A DNA stretch of 37,314 nucleotides, taken from assembly GCA_018698735.1 (NCBI GenBank), contig JABIPD010000035.1:1-37314 (forward strand), read 5' to 3'. Of the stretch, positions 7,329 through 34,170 are shown one piece after another. The translations under genes and the position numbers were made by a program. Positions within the stretch are counted from its first letter, which is position 1. Each line of letters begins with the position of its first letter. The notes beneath the pieces are model-generated. The model was not told the DNA's origin. It made no database searches and saw only the letters and a list, made by a program, of their open reading frames with translations. Origin of the DNA: Candidatus Jacksonbacteria bacterium (GTDB lineage: Bacteria; Patescibacteriota; Patescibacteriia; UBA9629; GWA2-43-13).

Positions 7329-7330
7329 AG

Positions 7331-7370
7331 AGTAATCCCGAATATACAAATCAAGTACAAATATACGAAT
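7331..7370 (-). promoter_or_regulatory. 40-bp promoter-bearing arm, copy A (TCGTAT-N16-TATATT), 12 nt from ATG 7328
   Basis: Minus strand reads attcgtatatttgtacttgatttgtatattcgggattact. It is 35/39 identical to copy D2. Confidence 0.55.
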
Positions 7371-7387
7371 TGTAAAATTTTTTAGTA

Positions 7388-7495
7388 CGTCATTCTGCCG
7401 TGCCCCGTCCTTGTGATGGGGACTGCAGGGGAAGAATCTCTTAATAAGACAAAAACAAAGATTCTTCACTTCGCAAAGCCTTGTTCAGAATGACG
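7388..7495. repeat. REP-like nested palindromic element
   Basis: 10-bp inverted repeat cgtcattctg (7388-7397) / cagaatgacg (7486-7495). Inner 9-bp stem gaagaatct (7431-7439) / agattcttc (7459-7467). Confidence 0.6.
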
Positions 7496-7530
7496 CAAGA
7501 GAGAGGGTCTACTCAGTATCATTTTGTATA

Positions 7531-8538
7531 TTAGTGATTCGTTGTTGGCTTTTTTACTCGCATAGCACGCAGCGAATCTACTGTTTTCTTTAGCCCCTCT
7601 TCCATCGACACCACAGGATACCACCCCAAAGCCTCTTTTGCCAGCGAAATGTCAAGCATTGCATGCTGATGCATTTCTTTTTCGTTTTTTTCTATAATTT
7701 GAGATTTACTTCCAATAATACTTTGTATAGCATTAATTAAATCGTTTAATGTATACGAAGTGTTAGCGCTAAAATTCATTGGTCCTGGCTGATCTGATGC
7801 CATCATTTTTAACAAACCTTCTACAATATCTAATACATACACCACCGTGATAGCGTCTTTCTTGTTTGAGTGCAATACGATAGGTTCGTTGTTCATGGCG
7901 TTTTCAACAATATCTGCTATTAACCTACCACTTCCAAGTTTCATATGTGGCCCGTACACACTCGCAACTCGAGCAATTTTTGTGTCGATGCCATTTTCTT
8001 TACCAAACCAATATATCATCATCTCTGCAAAGCGCTTGCCTTCTGCATACGCACCTTTTGGGCCTATCTGATCTACATACCCCCAGTATGTTTCTGGTAC
8101 CAGTTTTTCGTGGTCTGCTTGCCCATAAACCCAAGAAGAAGATGTAAACAAAAACTTTGCCTTCCATTTTTTTGCAATCTGCAAGGCATTGTATGTAGCA
8201 TGAGAAGCAGCCATTGCAGTTCGCAGCGGTTGTTCTTTATGATCTTTCGGGGTAGAGGGCGATGCTAAATGATACACCTCTTGAACACCTTGAAACTCCA
8301 TTTGGAATTTCTCCATATCTGGCTGCTGAGCTAAATCGAGAGGTAATGTTAAATCGTGACGAACCAACTCGAAATCTGGCAGCTGCAATAAATGCTGTAC
8401 ATTTTCTACAAAACCAGTGCTGAGATCGTCTACACAAATAACATGATGCTGTTTTACAAGCACCTCACATAACTGGGAGCCTAAGAATCCAGCGCCTCCT
8501 GTTACCAATATATTTTTTTTACCACTTGGAAAATGCAT
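7531..8538 (-). CDS. UDP-glucuronate decarboxylase-like (UDP-xylose synthase-like) extended SDR
   Basis: ORF 7531..8577. The real start is ATG 8538 (MHFPSGKKNILVTGGAGFLGSQL). Motifs HHVICVDDLSTGF, YHLASPSTP and YAEGKRFAE resemble the UXS family, and ugd is adjacent. Confidence 0.7.
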   Translation of the reverse strand: MHFPSGKKNILVTGGAGFLGSQLCEVLVKQHHVICVDDLSTGFVENVQHLLQLPDFELVRHDLTLPLDLAQQPDMEKFQMEFQGVQEVYHLASPSTPKDHKEQPLRTAMAASHATYNALQIAKKWKAKFLFTSSSWVYGQADHEKLVPETYWGYVDQIGPKGAYAEGKRFAEMMIYWFGKENGIDTKIARVASVYGPHMKLGSGRLIADIVENAMNNEPIVLHSNKKDAITVVYVLDIVEGLLKMMASDQPGPMNFSANTSYTLNDLINAIQSIIGSKSQIIEKNEKEMHQHAMLDISLAKEALGWYPVVSMEEGLKKTVDSLRAMRVKKPTTNH

Positions 8539-8540
8539 AG

Positions 8541-8579
8541 AGTAGTCACGAATATACAAATTTAAACAAATATACAAAT
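8541..8579 (-). promoter_or_regulatory. Promoter-bearing arm, copy B (TTGTAT-N15-TATATT), 12 nt from ATG 8538
   Basis: Minus strand reads atttgtatatttgtttaaatttgtatattcgtgactact, followed by ct and then the ATG. Confidence 0.55.
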
Positions 8580-8968
8580 CAGACTTTTTTATTAAGGATA
8601 CGTCTGTACTTAACTCCCTCTCGTGTAAAATATATTAGTATTGCTAATTGGCAGTTCAAAACTCTCAAATATTCTAAAACTTGTTTAATATGTACGTATC
8701 CCATCCTAGGTCTTACCTTTAATTCTAATATTATTTTATCATCAACTATTAAATCCAAAAAATACCTTCCAATACTTTCATTTTTATACGAGAGCTCCAC
8801 ACATTTTTGTGATTCAAATAGAACATCTTTTTCTTTTAACGAAACCTCAAAAGCTCGTTGGTAGTGCTTCTCCTGCATTCCATAACCAAGCTCATTATAC
8901 ACCTCATACGCTATACCTACTATCCTATAACTCAACTCTGGATATATAACCTTTTCATTGTCTATCAT
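8579..8968 (-). CDS. GxxExxY family protein (PD-(D/E)XK nuclease fold)
   Basis: 129 aa. It has an N-terminal IVGIAYEVYNELGYG motif and the core LDLIVDDKIILELK (D...ExK). Size and layout are typical for the family. Confidence 0.8.
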   Translation of the reverse strand: MIDNEKVIYPELSYRIVGIAYEVYNELGYGMQEKHYQRAFEVSLKEKDVLFESQKCVELSYKNESIGRYFLDLIVDDKIILELKVRPRMGYVHIKQVLEYLRVLNCQLAILIYFTREGVKYRRILNKKV

Positions 8969-8998
8969 ATCTTATTGCATATTGAAGCTATGTTTTTC

Positions 8999-9039
8999 CT
9001 ATTTGTATATTTGAACTTGATTTGTATATTCGCGATTAG
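8999..9039 (+). promoter_or_regulatory. Promoter-bearing arm, copy C. It points antisense into the 3' end of the S8 gene
   Basis: ctatttgtatatttgaacttgatttgtatattcgcgattag is 37/40 identical to D2 and ends directly at the S8 stop codon (9040-9042). Confidence 0.4.
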
Positions 9040-11352
9040 TTACCCTCCTAGTTGCACCGCTTTTCTCAGTGCTTTGCTAAAGACAAAAAATTGTTGAAGT
9101 AAATTTCCTGTGCTATTTACTATTTGTACCTGCGGACCGCCTCCGTCTTGTGGGACAGCAAAAATCTCATCGAAGCCATCGTTATTCGTATCCACAGCCA
9201 TACCGCTCAAGCCCGTTCGAAGGCCTGGTACAAATGCTGTAATTTCTTTTTGAAGATTCCCTGAGCTATCGAGCAGCTTTATCGCAGGCGTTTGCCGAGG
9301 AGCAGGATACACAAGAAGCATTTCGCTTTCAAAGCCTTCAAATAATCCAGAGGATAGTGTCATTCCTTTTACAAAGGCAATATCTGATTTTGGAAGAGCC
9401 TCTACTCCACCGAAGGCATTATATATGCGAAGCCCAAATTCTCTGGACCTTGATGCCAAAGCTGCTATTTCGTATATACCATTATTATCTTTATCTAAAA
9501 CTGTTATATCTACCCCAAGCCTACTTGATTCATCGCCAGCAAAAAACTGACTTGTAAGTTCGCCTGTTTCTCTAAATACTCGAATCATTGGTCCGCCGCC
9601 TTTTCCAGCAGCAACAATAATATCATCTTTCCCATTTCCGGTGACATCTGCCGATGCTAAGTTTAATCCTATGCGTGTTGCTTCTGGAAAACCTAAGAAA
9701 GACGAAATCATATTGCCCTGCTGATCAAAAATACGAATTTCGGGGAGGGCACTACTTGCAGGTGCGGTGATTATTTCTTGTACTCCGTCGTTGTCTACAT
9801 CGCCTAACACGACATTCACACCGGCTTTCATTTCTTTGTCGTATGCTAAAAATTCATGCTGCAATACCCCACCATAAGACCAGAGCCTAACCCATGGCTC
9901 AGCCCCTTTGGCAGATGCAGCAACAAAATATGAAGATGAAGAACTTTTCGCTTTTCTTTTTATCGCAGCTGCCTGAAAAACGGACACAGGGGCGAATTTT
10001 TTAATAGAAGAAAGTGTTTCTGCTATATTTAATCTCCCAAATCCAAGCTTACCTATCATATCTTGATTTTGAGCTACAACTGAATCGGAATTATAAATAA
10101 TGTAATCGTAAATTTCTTTTACCGATAAGCCTGGAGCATAACTTTTCACCAAGGCTGCCGCTCCGCTCACCATAGGTGCTGCAAACGACGTTCCGTTCCA
10201 TCCTCCGCTATAGGGCTTTTGCAAATCTGGGATACTTGCATTCCAAATTTGTGTGCTATAAATATTTTCTCCAGGCGCAACCAAATCTACACACGTTTTA
10301 CCAAAACTCGAAAATTCCGAGCGACGGTCTCTTTCGTTAACCGAGGCTACTCCTAGAATCCAATTTTTTCCGGATTTTTTTTCGTCTAAACAGCCAGGAA
10401 AAAGAGGCGTTACATCTAAATCACCGATCCCCTCAGATTCCGTATCTCCATCGTTTCCAACTGCTGCAACGATTACAACTCCGGCATCGTAGGCGTCTTT
10501 TATCGTTGCTTTTAATATATCGTCACTTAAGTGCCCAACAAAACTCATATTAATAACATCTGCGCCATTCTCCTTTGCGTACAATATTGCTTTTACAACA
10601 TCGAGTGTTGTTCCGTGCCCAAGGCCATTCAGAGCTTTAAGTCCCATTATCTGAACTTTATGAGAAATACCCGAAACACCAAGCGTGTTGTTTCCGCTTG
10701 CACCAATAATACCTGCAACAACCGTACCATGAGTAAGTCCCTCTATAGTGTAGCCCTTGCTATCTAATTTAGCTTCGGGGTGATACGTATTATGATTAAA
10801 ATCCCAACCATTTCTGTCGTCTACATATCCATTGTTGTCGTCATCTATTCCGTTGTTGGGTATCTCGTCTTCATTCATCCATATGTTCATTCGTAAGTCT
10901 GGATGGTCTATATCTACCCCCGTATCTATTACCGCGACGATAACGTCCTTGCTTCCTGTTGTAATATCCCAGGCTTCGAATGCTTTAATTTGTTTAAGAT
11001 AATGTTGTTCCGATGAAAATCTATCATTAACCGTCTGAGTAGCAACAGAAAAATTCTCAACATTGTTTGTGTTATATTGAACGCCTCGAGCAGATTTTAG
11101 CTCTTGTGGCTGATATGCAAAATTTGGTTGAACTAACTCAACACCTCTTTGCGACTGCCAATGCAAAATAGCATCTTCTTCAGATGCTATAGCCGAATTA
11201 TAATAGCGGAGCTCTGGAAATGGATTGTTGTGGTATTTAACGAGCAATTCTTTGTAATTAGAAGCAGCCGTATATGCTGGGAATCCAGAGATACTCGCTA
11301 GCGCAAATACAATCACTATAAAAATTTTCAAGCCATTTAAATGCCTTTTCAT
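9040..11352 (-). CDS. Secreted subtilisin-like serine protease (S8) with C-terminal FG-GAP/VCBS-type repeats
   Basis: Signal peptide MKRHLNGLKIFIVIVFALASISGFPAYTAA. Catalytic triad motifs VAVIDTGVDIDHPDL, HGTVVAGIIGA and GTSFAAPMVSGAAAL. Repeats include DVDNDGVQEI, DVTGNGKDDIIVAAGKGGGP and DTNNDGFDEIFAVPQDGGGP. Confidence 0.9.
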   Translation of the reverse strand: MKRHLNGLKIFIVIVFALASISGFPAYTAASNYKELLVKYHNNPFPELRYYNSAIASEEDAILHWQSQRGVELVQPNFAYQPQELKSARGVQYNTNNVENFSVATQTVNDRFSSEQHYLKQIKAFEAWDITTGSKDVIVAVIDTGVDIDHPDLRMNIWMNEDEIPNNGIDDDNNGYVDDRNGWDFNHNTYHPEAKLDSKGYTIEGLTHGTVVAGIIGASGNNTLGVSGISHKVQIMGLKALNGLGHGTTLDVVKAILYAKENGADVINMSFVGHLSDDILKATIKDAYDAGVVIVAAVGNDGDTESEGIGDLDVTPLFPGCLDEKKSGKNWILGVASVNERDRRSEFSSFGKTCVDLVAPGENIYSTQIWNASIPDLQKPYSGGWNGTSFAAPMVSGAAALVKSYAPGLSVKEIYDYIIYNSDSVVAQNQDMIGKLGFGRLNIAETLSSIKKFAPVSVFQAAAIKRKAKSSSSSYFVAASAKGAEPWVRLWSYGGVLQHEFLAYDKEMKAGVNVVLGDVDNDGVQEIITAPASSALPEIRIFDQQGNMISSFLGFPEATRIGLNLASADVTGNGKDDIIVAAGKGGGPMIRVFRETGELTSQFFAGDESSRLGVDITVLDKDNNGIYEIAALASRSREFGLRIYNAFGGVEALPKSDIAFVKGMTLSSGLFEGFESEMLLVYPAPRQTPAIKLLDSSGNLQKEITAFVPGLRTGLSGMAVDTNNDGFDEIFAVPQDGGGPQVQIVNSTGNLLQQFFVFSKALRKAVQLGG

Positions 11353-11377
11353 ATAAATCTAGTATATCACGCCCCTT

Positions 11378-11965
11378 TTATTTTTGATAATACTTATCCT
11401 GTGGCCATTTTATTGGGTTCATACCAATATATTCACGATGGTTTTTAAGATCTTCGTCGTTACGAATAATATGGTCATAAAATCGTGGTTGCCATTGGAA
11501 TGATGATCCGTGATTAGCGCGAATTTGTTTGGTTGAAACAATTTTTATTTGTTTAATAATATCACCAAGAGTCGATCTGTAGAGACGCTTTGGTAAAGCG
11601 TCTTCTTGTTTTTGTTGATCAAGACGCATCACCGATGCGTCTCTACGATCGGACATATTTCGTTCGGTATTCATCGGTAAAACATCATCATACGGACCAA
11701 TATGAATAATAACATGTACATGATTCGGCATAACAACAAAACTATCAATCAAAATATTCGTTCTTACCTCTTCTGTCTTTTTGATTTCCTTTTCAACAAT
11801 CTCACCGACCTCAGTCAGTACTACTTCATCGTCAATTATATTTGATAAAACACATTTCATATCCTTCACACACCATGTGACAAAGTAAAATCCTTCAGAC
11901 GAATAATCATAATGCTGATATCGAGAAGAATTAACTTTATAGGTATTTTTGTATAATTCAGACAT
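11378..11965 (-). CDS. rayT: REP-associated tyrosine transposase-like protein (RAYT, IS200-like Y1 HUH), paralogue 1
   Basis: HUH motif MPNHVHVIIHI and Tyr motif WQPRFYDHIIRNDEDL..YIGMNPIKW. An extended -10 (TGaTAATAT, 11980-11972) lies 6 nt from the ATG. Confidence 0.85.
   Translation of the reverse strand: MSELYKNTYKVNSSRYQHYDYSSEGFYFVTWCVKDMKCVLSNIIDDEVVLTEVGEIVEKEIKKTEEVRTNILIDSFVVMPNHVHVIIHIGPYDDVLPMNTERNMSDRRDASVMRLDQQKQEDALPKRLYRSTLGDIIKQIKIVSTKQIRANHGSSFQWQPRFYDHIIRNDEDLKNHREYIGMNPIKWPQDKYYQK
11579..11646. repeat. GTAG-REP doublet (REPIN-like) inside the RAYT1 coding sequence
   Basis: gtagagacgctttggtaaagcgtct, a 17-bp spacer, then aagacgcatcaccgatgcgtctctac. It is read in frame as RRDASVMRLDQQKQEDALPKRLY. 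Confidence 0.8.
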
Positions 11966-11982
11966 GAATACATATTATCAAT

Positions 11983-12050
11983 GTAGCGACTCTTTGGTAA
12001 AGCGCCTCCTTGCTTTTGTTAATAAAGACGCATCACCGATGCGTCTCTAC
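11983..12050. repeat. GTAG-REP doublet, intergenic copy 18 bp upstream of the RAYT1 ATG
   Basis: The left arm is degenerate (gtagcgactctttggtaaagcgcct). The right arm is identical to the in-ORF copies, and the spacer is similar to that of the RAYT1 in-ORF copy. Confidence 0.75.
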
Positions 12051-12064
12051 AAAAAACACAGATG

Positions 12065-12097
12065 AAATAAACGGCTCATCGTGTGAGCCGTTTATTT
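12065..12097. terminator. Bidirectional hairpin/terminator after the TPR gene, upstream of RAYT1
   Basis: 14-bp stem aaataaacggctca / tgagccgtttattt with a 5-nt loop. A near-identical hairpin lies at 22161-22195. Confidence 0.6.
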
Positions 12098-12109
12098 TTA
12101 CTGCCTCTT

Positions 12110-17224: not shown

Positions 17225-17657
17225 AAGAATTTCGGTTTATTAATTACCAACTCGCGAAGAACCTGGCTAAAAGGATCCGGGGCTTTTTAACCGACTCGAT
17301 AAACGAGGTCGACCTTTATGTTAAAAAGTTTCGGTATTTGAGCTCCTTGGCCATATTAAACGACGAGCGGTTGAGAGATATAAGCACAGAGGCATGCCTC
17401 TTATCTTTAACTTACTTTTTGAACCTAGGTTATTGTAAGAAAAAGACTTGAAAGATTGATTACCCGAAGGTGTCACAATCAGTAAGGCCCTATGCTTGCC
17501 CGTGGGAACAAATAATTGCCCCACAAGTAAGCATAGAAGCCAATAGAACCTTTGTACCTATCTCTATACGAACTTGAATAAGTGAGTATTCAATGATACT
17601 CGCATAAACTTTTCATATAATGACTAAAGTTTATGCCAATATCATTATTTTAAACTA
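17225..17657 (-). promoter_or_regulatory. Candidate ~430-nt structured 5' leader of the surface protein gene (if transcribed from arm D1)
   Basis: Several stems are visible: an 11-bp stem 17602-17612/17626-17636, a 6-bp stem 17584-17589/17596-17601, a composite stem 17490-17497/17529-17536 with 17502-17506/17520-17524, and the palindrome agaggcatgcctct at 17388-17401. No convincing ORF is present. Confidence 0.35.
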
Positions 17658-17763
17658 ATCGCTAATATACGAATCAGAAACGAATATACAAATAAACTAA
17701 TTTTTCATGATTTCCAGAGCTTCTATTTGTATATTTGTGCTTGATTTGTATATTCGTGATTAG
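17655..17763. mobile_element. Gene-less 109-bp MITE-like unit: arms D1 (17655-17694, minus) and D2 (17724-17763, plus) back to back with a 29-bp filler
   Basis: Read on the minus strand, D1 is tatttgtatattcgtttctgattcgtatattagcgattag. D2 is tatttgtatatttgtgcttgatttgtatattcgtgattag. The two are 33/40 identical as inverted repeats, and each carries an outward-reading TTGTAT-N16-TATATT. Confidence 0.5.
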
Positions 17764-17898
17764 TCAATTACACCCGCAAATACTACTAGATTTTGCGAAG
17801 AAAGTCAATGCTTTTTAGCGGATTTTTTGCTCTTATTTTGCTAAAAAGTGTATACTCTATCAAAACAGCTTAAAACAAGGACTTTTAAGCTGTTTTTT
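17760..17898 (+). ncRNA. Candidate orphan transcript (~140 nt) from arm D2 to the bidirectional terminator: either an sRNA or an mRNA for a 21-aa hydrophobic peptide
   Basis: The D2 -10 hexamer lies at 17749-17754. Hairpins lie at 17775-17797 (cgcaaa/tttgcg) and 17811-17848 (ctttttagc/gctaaaaag), followed by the terminator stem 17862-17896 with a T-run on the plus strand. A small ORF at 17808..17873 encodes MLFSGFFALILLKSVYSIKTA. Confidence 0.35.
17862..17896. terminator. Bidirectional intrinsic terminator (end of the anti-sigma gene on minus, end of the orphan unit on plus)
   Basis: 14-bp stem aaaacagcttaaaa / ttttaagctgtttt with a 7-nt loop. It is flanked by an A-run and a T-run. Confidence 0.75.
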
Positions 17899-19931: not shown

Positions 19932-20058
19932 ACTAAAACCTTACGCGGTAACGTATTTCCTCATAATAACCCATTTTAGTATATCATACACCCTAAAAGC
20001 AACATGGCGAATCATCTCGTTTTCAATACAAAGACTCGAGAGAGTGTGCCATTTTTTT

Positions 20059-20125
20059 GTAGAGACGCCTTGGTAAAGCGTCTTATTTTGAGATATTTCA
20101 AGACGCATCACCGATGCGTCTCTAC
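20059..20125. repeat. GTAG-REP doublet, intergenic copy between lexA and the sigma gene
   Basis: gtagagacgccttggtaaagcgtct, a 16-bp spacer, then aagacgcatcaccgatgcgtctctac. The right arm is identical to the other three copies. Confidence 0.8.
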
Positions 20126-20137
20126 AGAAGACAATAT

Positions 20138-20186: not shown

Positions 20187-20795
20187 TTATGCTGGTTGAA
20201 ATTTTCTAAACACGCCACGAACAATCCCTTGAATCGCTGGGTTTTTTACAAACAAAGGTTTCATTGTTTTATTTGCTGGTTGTAACCTAACCCCTTCATC
20301 TGTCCTGTAAAACCGTTTGAGCGTTGCATAGGTGTTATCGAGAAGAGCAACCACAACATCTCCATTCTGAGGGAAATAACTTCTTTCAACTATAACGTAG
20401 TCGCCATCTAAAATGCCATCGTCCATCATAGAATCCCCTTTTACGCGAAGAACGAATGCATTTGGATCACCTGCAAGTGATGCCGGAACTGCAACCGTCT
20501 CTCTCGTTTCTATAGCTTCTATTGGCTCTCCAGCAGCAATAATACCCACAAGTGGAAGCTCGAACATAAACGAGCCTTCTTGGTTAACATTTTCTAGTTC
20601 TATAGACCTTGCTTCTGGACCCGTAGAAAGATACCCCTTTCGTTCTAAAGATTTCATATACTGAGCAACAGTTGCTACAGAAGAATAACCAAATTCCGCG
20701 GCTATTTCTCTATACGAAGGAGGGAATCCATTTTCGTCTATAGATTTTCTTAAAAAGTCGAGTACCTTTTTTTGTTTTGGTGTAAGAGGCTTCAT
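20187..20795 (-). CDS. lexA: LexA repressor
   Basis: N-terminal wHTH (PSYREIAAEFGYSSVATVAQYMKSLERKGYL), Ala-Gly cleavage site (GIIAAGEPIEA), and the Ser/Lys dyad (VKGDSMMDDGI, ATLKRFY). Confidence 0.93.
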   Translation of the reverse strand: MKPLTPKQKKVLDFLRKSIDENGFPPSYREIAAEFGYSSVATVAQYMKSLERKGYLSTGPEARSIELENVNQEGSFMFELPLVGIIAAGEPIEAIETRETVAVPASLAGDPNAFVLRVKGDSMMDDGILDGDYVIVERSYFPQNGDVVVALLDNTYATLKRFYRTDEGVRLQPANKTMKPLFVKNPAIQGIVRGVFRKFQPA

Positions 20796-20799
20796 ATGA

Positions 20800-20916
20800 G
20801 TAGTCGCTAATATACAAATAGATCACAAATATACAAATTCGAGTAAATATATGAACAAGAAAGTAACCCTGCTTTCAATTTGTATATTTGTGCTTGATTC
20901 GTATATTCGAGAACAG
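20800..20916. mobile_element. Gene-less 117-bp MITE-like unit: arms E1 (20800-20839, minus, 13 nt from the lexA ATG) and E2 (20877-20916, plus) with a 37-bp filler
   Basis: Read on the minus strand, E1 is aatttgtatatttgtgatctatttgtatattagcgactac. E2 is aatttgtatatttgtgcttgattcgtatattcgagaacag. Confidence 0.5.
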
Positions 20917-20955
20917 TTTCATTATACCAAACAAATACCGCACACACAAAACACG

Positions 20956-21053
20956 TATGGGGATAACTCTAATTAAATCAAAAAATAAAAACACGAAATA
21001 AGAAATTCAAAATTGCAATACACATTGTCTTAGACGTTTCGAGAATTATATAT
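20956..21053 (+). repeat. AT-rich dispersed repeat, copy 1 (~100 bp)
   Basis: tatggggataactctaattaaatcaaaaaataaaa...gacgtttcgagaattatatat is ~85% identical to 32806-32908. An inverted partner (attttgaatttg, 21059-21070) pairs with 21004-21014. Confidence 0.7.
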
Positions 21054-21145
21054 TTAGATTTTGAATTTGTTTAGGATTTCAATATTCTCATTTCGAATTT
21101 TAACTCACTTGTTATTTAAAATATCAGCTGATACCATTTAGGTAT

Positions 21146-21587: not shown

Positions 21588-22145
21588 TTATTTAAAATAT
21601 TTGTCCTGAGACCATTTTATTGGGTTGATTCCGATATAATCACGATGGGACTGAAGGTCATGATCGTTACGGATGATATGATCATAAAATCGTGACTGCC
21701 ACTGAAAGGAAGGATTGTGATTGTTACGAATTTGTTTTGTTGAGACAATTTTTATTTGTTTGATAATATTACCAAGATTTGCCGTGTAGAGACGCTTTGG
21801 TAAAGCGTCTCCTTTTTTTTGATTATTAAGACGCATCACCGATGCGTCTCTACAGGAAGAGTCGAACATAGGACCTATATGAATAATAACATGCACGTGA
21901 TTTGGCATCACAACAAAAGAATCTACACGAACATTTTTTCTCACCTCTTCTGTTTTTTTAATCTCTTTTTCAACAATCTCTCCAATTAAACTTAATACTA
22001 TTTTATCATCCACAACCTTAGACAACACGCAGTTCATATTTTTTACACACCATGTTACAAAATAGAACCCCTCAGAAGAATAGTCATACTGGGAATAACG
22101 AGCCGATGGGATTCGGTATTGGTTATTGTATAGAAATTGATTCAT
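21588..22145 (-). CDS. rayT: REP-associated tyrosine transposase-like protein (RAYT), paralogue 2
   Basis: Same motifs as paralogue 1 (MPNHVHVIIHI, WQSRFYDHIIRNDHDL). A perfect extended -10 (TGtTATAAT, 22160-22152) lies 6 nt from the ATG. Confidence 0.85.
   Translation of the reverse strand: MNQFLYNNQYRIPSARYSQYDYSSEGFYFVTWCVKNMNCVLSKVVDDKIVLSLIGEIVEKEIKKTEEVRKNVRVDSFVVMPNHVHVIIHIGPMFDSSCRDASVMRLNNQKKGDALPKRLYTANLGNIIKQIKIVSTKQIRNNHNPSFQWQSRFYDHIIRNDHDLQSHRDYIGINPIKWSQDKYFK
21786..21853. repeat. GTAG-REP doublet inside the RAYT2 coding sequence
   Basis: Both arms are identical (25/25 and 26/26) to the RAYT1 in-ORF copy, while the spacer differs. It is read as CRDASVMRLNNQKKGDALPKRLY. Confidence 0.8.
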
Positions 22146-22160
22146 ATTTTTATTATAACA

Positions 22161-22195
22161 AAAATAAACGGCTCATATCGTGAGCCGTTTATTTT
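22161..22195. terminator. Hairpin/terminator after the 3376-aa gene, abutting the RAYT2 promoter
   Basis: 15-bp stem aaaataaacggctca / tgagccgtttatttt. It is near-identical to 12065-12097. Confidence 0.6.
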
Positions 22196-22211
22196 ATTAC
22201 TAACTTCCCAC

Positions 22212-22272
22212 GTAGAAACGAGGTCCCCAGACACATTTCTCGCATGGTCGGGGCACGTAACCCCGTTTCTAC
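22212..22272. repeat. GTAG-REP doublet, GTAGAAACG variant
   Basis: gtagaaacg (22212-22220) pairs with cgtttctac (22264-22272). An inner hairpin cggggcacgtaaccccg lies at 22249-22265. Confidence 0.6.
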
Positions 22273-22283
22273 AGAATAATTTC

Positions 22284-32805: not shown

Positions 32806-32908
32806 TATGGGGATAACTTTAATTAAATTAAAAAATAAAAGCACTAAACAAGAAACAAATTCAAAATCACAATATACAAGTCTCTAAACGTTTCGAGCAT
32901 AATATATA
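32806..32908 (+). repeat. AT-rich dispersed repeat, copy 2
   Basis: tatggggataactttaattaaattaaaaaataaaa...aacgtttcgagcataatatat aligns with 20956-21053. Confidence 0.7.
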
Positions 32909-33011
32909 TTAAAATTGATATTCTTAATTATATGATTCTCAAAAAAGATAGTCTACAGGCCTTACATTTTATAGTGTTTCTTATTTTAAATTTCGTGCTT
33001 CTTATTTGCCT

Positions 33012-33931: not shown

Positions 33932-34170
33932 TCCCTCCTTCGAGGGACAGGCTCTGTCTTTTGATCGTCATCCCCGACCCCGATCGGGGATCCATGCTCT
34001 TTTTATTTCTTCAGCCTATTGGATTCCTCTGCCCTTTGTCCGTCATCCTCAGCTTGACTGGGGATCCATGTGCTTCTTTCATGAGGCCATGGATTCCCGA
34101 TCGGGGTCGGGAATGACTGCAAAGGAATTTTTTCTTTCGTTTTATCCCCCCTCTTTGCATAAGAGGGGGT
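33932..34170. repeat. Cluster of REP-like hairpin elements
   Basis: Three copies of cgtcat(c/t)cc..ggg(g/a)atccatg lie at 33966-33995 and 34041-34070 (direct) and 34088-34117 (inverted), with a core palindrome ccccgatcgggg. Two further hairpins lie at 33933-33946 (ccctc/gaggg) and 34147-34169 (ccccctctt/aagaggggg). Confidence 0.75.

Follow-up and report, generated by a model that had tools for sequence, protein, structure and literature searches.

A GxxExxY nuclease gene between inverted repeat arms: a probable small insertion element of a type not described before in Patescibacteria

We analyzed a 37,314-nt stretch of DNA from Candidatus Jacksonbacteria (contig JABIPD010000035.1, positions 1 to 37,314; referred to here as the window), focusing on a unit at 8541-9040 in which a gene of the GxxExxY family lies between two inverted repeat arms. 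We call this unit a cassette and compared it with ~200 related loci (numbered L...). The cassette sits between an S8 peptidase gene and a gene for a 335-aa epimerase; the epimerase shares 100% identity with a protein assigned to Candidatus Jacksonbacteria by NCBI. Its upstream, gene-distal arm (8999-9040, plus strand) points its boxes toward the GxxExxY start, and the arm's tail, ..CGCGATTAGT, touches the S8 stop codon at 9040-9042. A 30-nt spacer (8969-8998, minus strand) leads from this arm to the GxxExxY ATG; the corresponding distance is mostly 0-15 nt in other Patescibacteria loci. The gene itself (8579-8968, minus strand) encodes 129 amino acids, predicted to form a minimal RecB/Cas4-type PD-(D/E)XK nuclease, and its stop codon overlaps the downstream, gene-proximal arm (8541-8579, minus strand) by 1 nt. 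The tail of this second arm, ..CGTGACTACT, is followed by CT and then by the epimerase ATG (8538), with a -10-like TATATT located 12 nt before that start. The two arms are ~80% reverse-complementary (judged by eye), with one indel in the spacer, and enclose nothing besides the open reading frame (ORF) and its 30-nt leader. This is the sole gene inside any arm pair of the window.

All window arms share one layout: ATTYGTATATTYG, 6-7 nt, ATTYGTATATTMG and NGAYTAST, that is, two direct boxes of 10-11 nt placed 19-20 nt apart and followed by a tail. The ~42-nt motif occurs as seven full arms and one half arm, all of them paired, in four inverted pairs whose tails point outward (tails-out): 7330-7371/7521-7543, 8541-8579/8999-9040, 17653-17694/17723-17764 and 20798-20839/20876-20917. 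The two-box pattern GTATATTYG-N6-8-TTYGTATATT has seven matches (7341-7366, 8551-8575, 17664-17689 and 20809-20834 on the minus strand; 9005-9030, 17729-17754 and 20882-20907 on the plus strand), compared to 0.00 expected from 100 shuffles. Similarity among the window arms is 74-93%, and other arm pairs show 81-89% complementarity; the fillers of the pairs are unrelated. In the degenerate gene-less pair, the gene-proximal arm (7330-7371, minus strand) stops 2 nt short of the ATG (7328) of a 306-aa epimerase gene, and its partner, a half arm made of one box plus tail (7521-7543, plus strand), overlaps the last codons and the stop of the 335-aa epimerase gene. The gene-less pair at 17653-17764 has a 29-nt filler, abuts no ORF with either arm, and sits in a 676-nt spacer between a DUF5667 gene and a 1354-aa gene. 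The gene-less pair at 20798-20917 has a 37-nt filler, and its left arm ends 2-3 nt from the lexA ATG (20795). The arms at 7330, 8541 and 20798 all end 2-3 nt before minus-strand start codons, those of lexA and the two epimerase genes. Scanning the window for Rfam families and tRNAs gave no match, and no rRNA lies in it.

The initial annotation of this DNA had reported the inverted arms with their sequences and coordinates, a 129-codon GxxExxY ORF with its nuclease core plus ~30 nt as their only content, gene-less pairs with 29- and 37-nt fillers together with a degenerate one, and outer ends lying on coding signals. Each of these descriptions was borne out, with one arm at the S8 stop codon and three arms 2-3 nt from an ATG.

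The window protein matches TIGR04256 with 108.1 bits (cut-off 35) and PF13366 with 109.1 bits (cut-off 22), and contains the motif LDLIVDDKIILELK. Across 48 sequences, G30, E33, Y36, D72, E82, K84 and Q96 are invariant and Y100 is nearly so; by our reading, E33, D72, E82, K84, Q96 and Y100 would correspond to the RecB/Cas4 motif set. A sequence search against solved structures returned no significant match to the GxxExxY protein. An AlphaFold model built from the 48 sequences had a mean pLDDT of 91, and a fold search placed it closest in the PDB to the Cas4 nuclease SSO0001 (E 2e-5, TM 0.59), followed by MGME1 and lambda-exonuclease-type enzymes; Holliday-junction resolvases and one homing endonuclease were faint fold matches only. 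Because the modeled fold is RecB/Cas4-like and the catalytic-type residues are invariant, the protein is probably an active nuclease. PF13366 was entered as 'Unknown', with 'multiple transfers', in a published survey (PMC3424549). Literature string searches for the motif and for GxxExxY/PF13366 gave no description of the arms or of a bracket around the gene.

The proteins most similar to the window protein (50-63% identity) are all encoded in Parcubacteria-type genomes. In all of the first three homologue contexts, the GxxExxY gene again lay inside a tails-out arm pair, with the tail of the reverse arm at or overlapping the upstream stop codon and the tail of the forward arm directly before the next start codon (ATG in two of the three, apparently GTG in L135). 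A metagenome scan added 80 GxxExxY loci, whose flanks showed the same bracket almost everywhere. The box sequence varies by lineage (TTYGTATATT, TTCGCATTATT, TTTGTAATTTG, TTCGCTTAAATTCG), and in the two main box families the tail changes little; within a cassette, the arms belong to one box family, and the families differ between cassettes. We also applied a motif-free test, in which the 60 nt upstream of a gene were locally aligned to the reverse complement of the 60 nt downstream and a score of ≥20 was counted as a bracket. Of 71 non-redundant Patescibacteria GxxExxY loci, 69% reached this threshold; among 311 control ORFs taken from these loci the share was 5.8%, which makes a bracket 12 times more frequent around GxxExxY genes. 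In most of the 39 loci of at least 4 kb, an arm elsewhere in the locus scored no better than arms of unrelated loci (medians 22 and 21), and the other intergenic regions of GxxExxY loci were mostly ordinary. The genes that recur downstream of cassettes are ftsE, pilC, iscU, prgI, spoU, gatC, rplL and pheT. At the level of sequence comparison, these results show that the bracket architecture is family-wide in Patescibacteria.

Some GxxExxY loci have flanks of other kinds. At L112 only the downstream forward arm is visible. At L194 (4388-4549) the forward arm after the GxxExxY gene, together with 14 nt, is tandemly triplicated (a 57-nt unit in three copies) before ftsE. Outside Patescibacteria, the flanks of four plasmid GxxExxY loci vary: a Fusobacteria plasmid (CP102406.1; L219, 1375-1935) has a direct repeat of ~50 nt in which the downstream gene's leader is duplicated, a Treponema locus (L220) has an 11-bp inverted repeat, ACACGGATTCG, at the gene's flanks, and a Gemmatirosa locus (L222) has a box-repeat palindrome immediately downstream of the gene.

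The junction between prfB and ftsE, which is occupied by a cassette in at least 12 loci, allowed occupied and unoccupied versions of one site to be compared. For this we took four genomes (L224, L226, L227 and L229) in which FtsE has 76-80% identity to the FtsE of an occupied locus. Two of them have a bare junction without arms, of 4 nt in L226 (TAG ACAC ATG) and 2 nt in L229, and L224 has an ordinary, armless 66-nt spacer; a GIY-YIG gene beside the bare junction of L226 has no bracket. In L227 the junction holds a 223-nt unit composed of both arms plus the first ~50 and the last ~110 nt of the GxxExxY ORF, which by its composition is an internal-deletion derivative of the cassette. This unit shows how the gene can decay by internal deletion with the arms persisting. 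The L227 remnant and the L137 cassette share 90-91% DNA identity over 228 nt, whereas their flanks share 74.4% (prfB) and 69.0% (ftsE). Identity falls sharply at the ftsE edge (65-72% in the first windows) and is slightly raised, at 80-82%, in the last ~90 nt of prfB. FtsE places L227 nearest to the bare-junction genomes (84%), with L137 more distant (75%). L137 and L194 likewise have elements that are 82% identical between flanks of 73% and 66%, and other pairs show the opposite, closely related hosts with divergent cassettes. Vertical co-inheritance at this junction was rejected: GxxExxY and FtsE identities correlate with an r of 0.22, and the nearest neighbor of a GxxExxY protein comes from the same site in 1 of 9 cases. 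At the window's own junction, L223 (71% epimerase identity, same gene order) lacks the GxxExxY gene between S8-type and epimerase genes and has a short arm pair of another box family there.

Taken together, these alignments show cassettes that are present or absent as whole units at orthologous junctions. Because elements can be far more alike between two genomes than the flanking essential genes are, we read the pattern as the horizontal exchange of a discrete unit that ends at the arm tails, with subsequent decay of the ORF in place. The initial annotation had proposed looking for brackets around other GxxExxY genes and for occupied versus empty syntenic sites, and had postulated internally deleted derivatives; the bracketed family, the bare junctions together with the gene-less junction of L223, and the L227 unit answer to these expectations.

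We lean toward viewing 8541-9040 as a member of a family of small insertion cassettes with a wide distribution in Patescibacteria. In such a cassette, a gene for a ~125-aa RecB/Cas4-type PD-(D/E)XK nuclease would lie inside two inverted arms of ~40 bp, the whole fitting exactly into the gap from one gene's stop codon to the next gene's start codon. The gene-proximal arm would keep the interrupted downstream gene expressed by supplying a promoter and a near-leaderless 5' end. The nuclease may promote spread by cutting unoccupied junctions or arm palindromes, after which the cassette would be copied in by recombination, in a homing-like process. Many gene-less arm pairs would then be leftovers of such cassettes.

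Arms also occur without a GxxExxY gene. A scan with the two-box pattern, using one genome per species, found at least 117 loci; among the 80 matches listed, most belong to metagenome-assembled genomes (MAGs) of Saccharibacteria, Parcubacteria and other Patescibacteria. The recurrent arm consists of two direct TTYGTATATT boxes and a tail with the consensus ..GCGATTACTCC, followed by ATG, which typically lies 10-18 nt past the second box; about half of the matches contain the extended motif that includes the tail ..CGCGATTACTCC. The genes behind these arms are assorted housekeeping genes, such as nusG, nusA, dnaB, pheT, ychF and those for L25 and S6. Where two arms lie within 150 nt of each other, 44 arrangements are tails-out, four are tandem and none is tails-in. 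In 37 of 50 pairs one arm only abuts an ORF that starts with ATG, in 13 neither does, and in none do both. The two arms of one pair can be consistently different subtypes within a genome.

Two candidate identities for the motif were tried and rejected. Direct-repeat LexA motifs are reported in Patescibacteria and Balneolaeota (PMC7739468). The arms are not LexA (SOS) boxes: a lexA homologue is found in 0 of the 117 arm-bearing loci, and the downstream genes are the housekeeping assortment described above. Nor does a Bacteroidetes-type or otherwise general, genome-wide promoter fully explain them, given that most intergenic regions of GxxExxY loci are armless and that boxes differ between junctions of one genome. 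The window's own lexA gene (20187-20795; TIGR00498, 192 bits) begins 2-3 nt after an arm, an adjacency that is probably coincidental because no lexA lies near arms in other genomes.

The arms have features of start signals and of hairpins. Their sequence contains TTGTAT-N16-TATATT, with the box spacing giving a 16-17-nt spacer; TATATT matches its consensus at 5 of 6 positions and TTGTAT at 3 of 6 (by eye). Some box families are not -10-like. Promoter donation by the arms is plausible. Elsewhere in the window, TATAAT-like hexamers stand 6-9 nt before an ATG without a Shine-Dalgarno sequence at the genes for the S8 peptidase (TATACT), a TPR protein (TAATAT) and a 3376-aa protein (TATAAT), in the regions 11353-11377, 11966-12109 and 22146-22283; this arrangement suggests that leaderless mRNAs are common in this genome. 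Gene-less pairs are predicted to fold at -30 to -41 kcal/mol on either strand (z -4.7 to -8). Neither a promoter nor an RNA-stem model accounts for the likeness of an arm's two boxes.

Few ORFs other than GxxExxY genes have high flank scores, and these include three genes of the four-helix-bundle family TIGR02436 (L186, 1747-2103; L206, 2582-2947; L199, 989-1348). They are flanked by inverted arms whose direct-repeat boxes have yet other sequences, and the ATG of the next gene follows the forward arm. TIGR02436 was first found in the intervening sequences (IVS) of 23S rRNA. The 428-nt IVS of Coxiella has a 28-bp stem formed by its terminal inverted repeats, and its loop holds an S23p ORF; the element is excised by RNase III, and was acquired horizontally and thereafter maintained vertically (PMC4990558). 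Like the 23S rRNA IVS of Coxiella and Leptospira, the cassette is a ~430-500-nt element whose terminal inverted repeats can form a long stem and whose loop holds a ~120-aa ORF without an assigned function. Both occur sporadically, with horizontal gain followed by vertical upkeep and an ORF that tends to decay (PMC4990558), and the IVS protein family has the same kind of bracket in Patescibacteria loci. Unlike an IVS, the cassette lies between protein-coding genes rather than inside an rRNA helix, encodes a RecB/Cas4-type nuclease, and has bipartite arms, of two direct boxes plus a tail, that abut stop and start codons. By analogy, the window unit may be described as an intergenic counterpart, in layout, of the ORF-bearing 23S rRNA IVS.

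A second system with a similar layout is REPIN/RAYT. REPINs are described as inverted doublets with a spacer, and RAYT as a single-copy gene flanked by REP sequences (PMC3116915, PMC3337134). The likeness extends to doublets dispersed in intergenic DNA, to a single-copy gene flanked by the same repeats in inverted orientation, and to repeat families that are gene-specific. Unlike that system, the cassette encodes a PD-(D/E)XK fold and not an HUH Y1 enzyme, its arm is not itself a hairpin, the pairs lie exactly at stop|start junctions, and the spacers are not conserved among copies. ORF-bearing rRNA IVS and REPIN/RAYT are the closest known systems, and the cassette belongs to neither, since it is not inside rRNA and has no Y1 transposase. 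The window also contains true RAYT genes (11378-11965 and 21588-22145; 75-81% DNA identity, NF047646), copies of a REP hairpin, TGTAGAGACGC..GCGTCTCTACA (11578-11646, 11982-12050, 20058-20133 and 21785-21853), and terminator-like hairpins near the RAYT genes (12062-12099 and 22160-22197). Together these look like a classical REP/RAYT system in a Patescibacteria genome, beside the arm pairs.

Other known elements share fewer traits with the cassette. The Correia elements of Neisseria are, as the gene-less pairs are, intergenic inverted-repeat units of ~100-150 bp, and their ends can act as outward promoters; no transposase and no ORF-bearing form are known for them. They have a TA target duplication and conserved interiors, whereas the pairs described here show no such duplication, have unrelated fillers and do occur in an ORF-bearing form. 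Free-standing homing endonuclease genes include the PD-(D/E)XK enzyme I-Ssp6803I, and small PD-(D/E)XK proteins can be site-specific. Such genes, like the cassette, fill a given site in some lineages and are missing from it in close relatives, and the phylogenies of element and host disagree; homing genes, unlike the cassette, neither need nor carry inverted-repeat arms. Similarity beside the element is slightly raised in the last ~90 nt of prfB only, with none in ftsE, so any co-conversion tract would be short. The analogy to TnsA of Tn7 that the initial annotation had drawn is weak. It is limited to the PD-(D/E)XK fold of what appears to be a minimal RecB/Cas4-type nuclease: there is no TnsB-type partner and there are no Tn7-like ends, and the nearest structures are Cas4, MGME1 and lambda-exonuclease-type enzymes, not TnsA. 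Of the hallmarks of transposons with terminal inverted repeats and of miniature inverted-repeat transposable elements (MITEs), the cassette has the inverted ends and presence or absence at orthologous sites; near-identical copies sharing internal sequence were not found within the window.

Several observations weigh against the insertion-cassette interpretation. The cassette is single and fixed where it could be followed within a population. Contigs identical to the window occur in marine metagenome samples and in the MAGs GCA_018671995.1 and GCA_018670295.1; all 24 population contigs read for GxxExxY carry the gene, and these as well as the 24 contigs read likewise for the epimerase have the same context in the places listed, with no presence/absence difference among the 24 + 24 contigs. 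The window protein has no close paralogue, its nearest full-length relative being 63% identical. In this Candidatus Jacksonbacteria population the window copy is thus single and fixed and shows no recent mobility. No target-site duplication is visible by eye outside the tails, either in the window, where the initial annotation had seen none, or in ~45 pairs of other genomes. Fillers range from 0 to 77 nt and are unrelated even within one genome although the arms are conserved; judged by their sequences, the gene-less pairs do not resemble copies made by a mobile unit. A 129-aa RecB-type domain without a separate DNA-binding or strand-transfer domain seems insufficient on its own. The bracket is not specific to the GxxExxY nuclease, as the unrelated four-helix-bundle family (in which the scan detected no nuclease domain) has one of the same kind. 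Box sequences differ between junctions of one genome (L223, L185, L186), two paralogues in one locus (L173) have different arms, and the boxes do not appear to be tied to one genome-wide reader. At L109 the GxxExxY gene is not in a pair center: it follows a complete pair like an ordinary downstream gene and precedes a second forward arm. A simple sigma-70 scan does not call the arms, because their -35 hexamer matches at 3 of 6 positions and the scan requires ≥4. Finally, tests for selection on RNA pairing, including pairing in a terminator or stabilizer hairpin of the sense RNA, conflict: mismatches in GxxExxY brackets favor sense-strand G-U (70 vs 41, p 0.008), short pairs show the reverse bias (38 vs 62, p 0.02), and the antisense hairpin is the more stable one in 23 of 33 short pairs.

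The interpretation offered in the initial annotation is thus partly supported. Its small mobile element holds insofar as a unit is gained, lost and exchanged between species, while the window copy itself is single and fixed in 24 contigs. Mobilization of the gene-less pairs in trans is not supported, in view of the unrelated fillers, the lack of target-site duplication and the absence of near-identical copies.

The main rival reading assigns the arms to the host. Pairs would be boundary elements (promoter, insulator or RNA-processing hairpin) at gene junctions and the arms would not belong to a mobile unit; the variable loop, as the sole dispensable DNA of compact genomes, would be where small ORFs lodge, neutrally or by homing into the palindrome center. 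This would account for the excess of gene-less over gene-bearing pairs (44 short pairs vs 1 holding a GxxExxY gene in arm-selected loci), for conserved arms around unconstrained fillers, and for the presence of two unrelated gene families in the same position. It also fits the retention of the pair architecture at orthologous junctions despite entirely different box sequences, and the consistently different subtypes of the two arms of a pair, which suggest distinct roles. We nonetheless consider it unlikely. In close relatives with a bare 2-4-nt prfB|ftsE junction the arms come or go with the gene, high identity on the ftsE side ends at the arm tail and not within the pair (toward prfB, identity is slightly raised over that gene's last ~90 nt), and in most GxxExxY loci the only arms are those around that gene. 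The bare junctions and the identity edge at ftsE thus weaken this rival. A different symbiosis, resembling that of REPINs and RAYT, seems improbable to us: a single-copy, vertically kept, domesticated GxxExxY gene would mobilize or maintain, in trans, gene-less pairs of its own box family. All four window pairs do belong to the box family of the arms around GxxExxY, the population has the gene fixed in a single copy, arms of one cassette have a common family that differs between cassettes, and the doublet-with-spacer layout fits REPINs as described (PMC3337134, PMC3116915). Against it, a PD-(D/E)XK nuclease is not a Y1 HUH enzyme that cuts and rejoins DNA, genomes can hold several GxxExxY genes and several box families, fillers within one genome are unrelated, unlike replicating REPIN copies, and the cassettes themselves come and go between relatives.

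The alternative named in the initial annotation, in which a strong promoter has been reused in divergent copies by chance and GxxExxY is an ordinary gene between them, was rejected, and we give it almost no weight. The gene-proximal arm does carry a -10-like TATATT and end 2-4 nt before an ATG, assorted housekeeping genes do lie downstream of arms in other genomes, and the pair at 20798-20917 does sit between divergent genes. The 50 pairs in which both arms never abut an ORF mean, however, that pairs are not divergent promoters, and chance arrangement is contradicted by the 44 tails-out pairs against no tails-in pair. The distal arm faces into the 3' end of a gene that runs in the same direction, the bracket is 12-fold enriched around GxxExxY genes relative to control ORFs, and most intergenic regions of GxxExxY loci have no arms.

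The insertion-cassette interpretation can be extended, more tentatively, to both bracketed families. It is possible, though we would not expect it, that GxxExxY and four-helix-bundle IVS proteins are alternative cargo of unrecognized mobile cassettes that insert between stop and start codons, home by means of the nuclease, are delimited by bipartite inverted arms that also re-create a near-leaderless promoter for the interrupted downstream gene, and leave remnants that serve as start signals of housekeeping genes. If true, this would give a function to the large orphan family PF13366 and explain the origin of ORF-bearing rRNA IVS: two sporadic families, GxxExxY and the four-helix-bundle IVS proteins, would be linked by one kind of element, and the IVS idea would extend to protein-coding operons. 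Through its conserved architecture, PF13366/TIGR04256 gains a role that can be tested, that of a selfish cassette's nuclease. Should the arms act as promoters or processing sites, remnants of insertion elements would supply the start signals of housekeeping genes such as ftsE, rplK, rplL, gyrA and iscU in the reduced genomes of Patescibacteria.

The window has further repeats. A ~120-nt inverted-repeat element, GTCATTCTG..CAGAATGAC, at 7385-7505 is nested centrally in the degenerate pair 7330-7543, and look-alikes of the form GTCATT..GAAGAATC or GTCATTGCGAG..GAAGCAATC were seen by eye at 33967-34117 of the window, at 2450-2520 of L185, and in a filler of L025. At 20956-21072 and 32806-32929, in long AT-rich spacers upstream of a 146-aa gene and of the 3376-aa gene, a direct repeat of 50 nt (90% identical) adjoins an inverted repeat of 77 nt; it has no Rfam match and may represent a small RNA or a regulatory region common to both genes. 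Lastly, tandem 156-nt (52-codon) repeats with 60-72% identity span 985-2700, within the coding region of a giant fn3-type surface protein.

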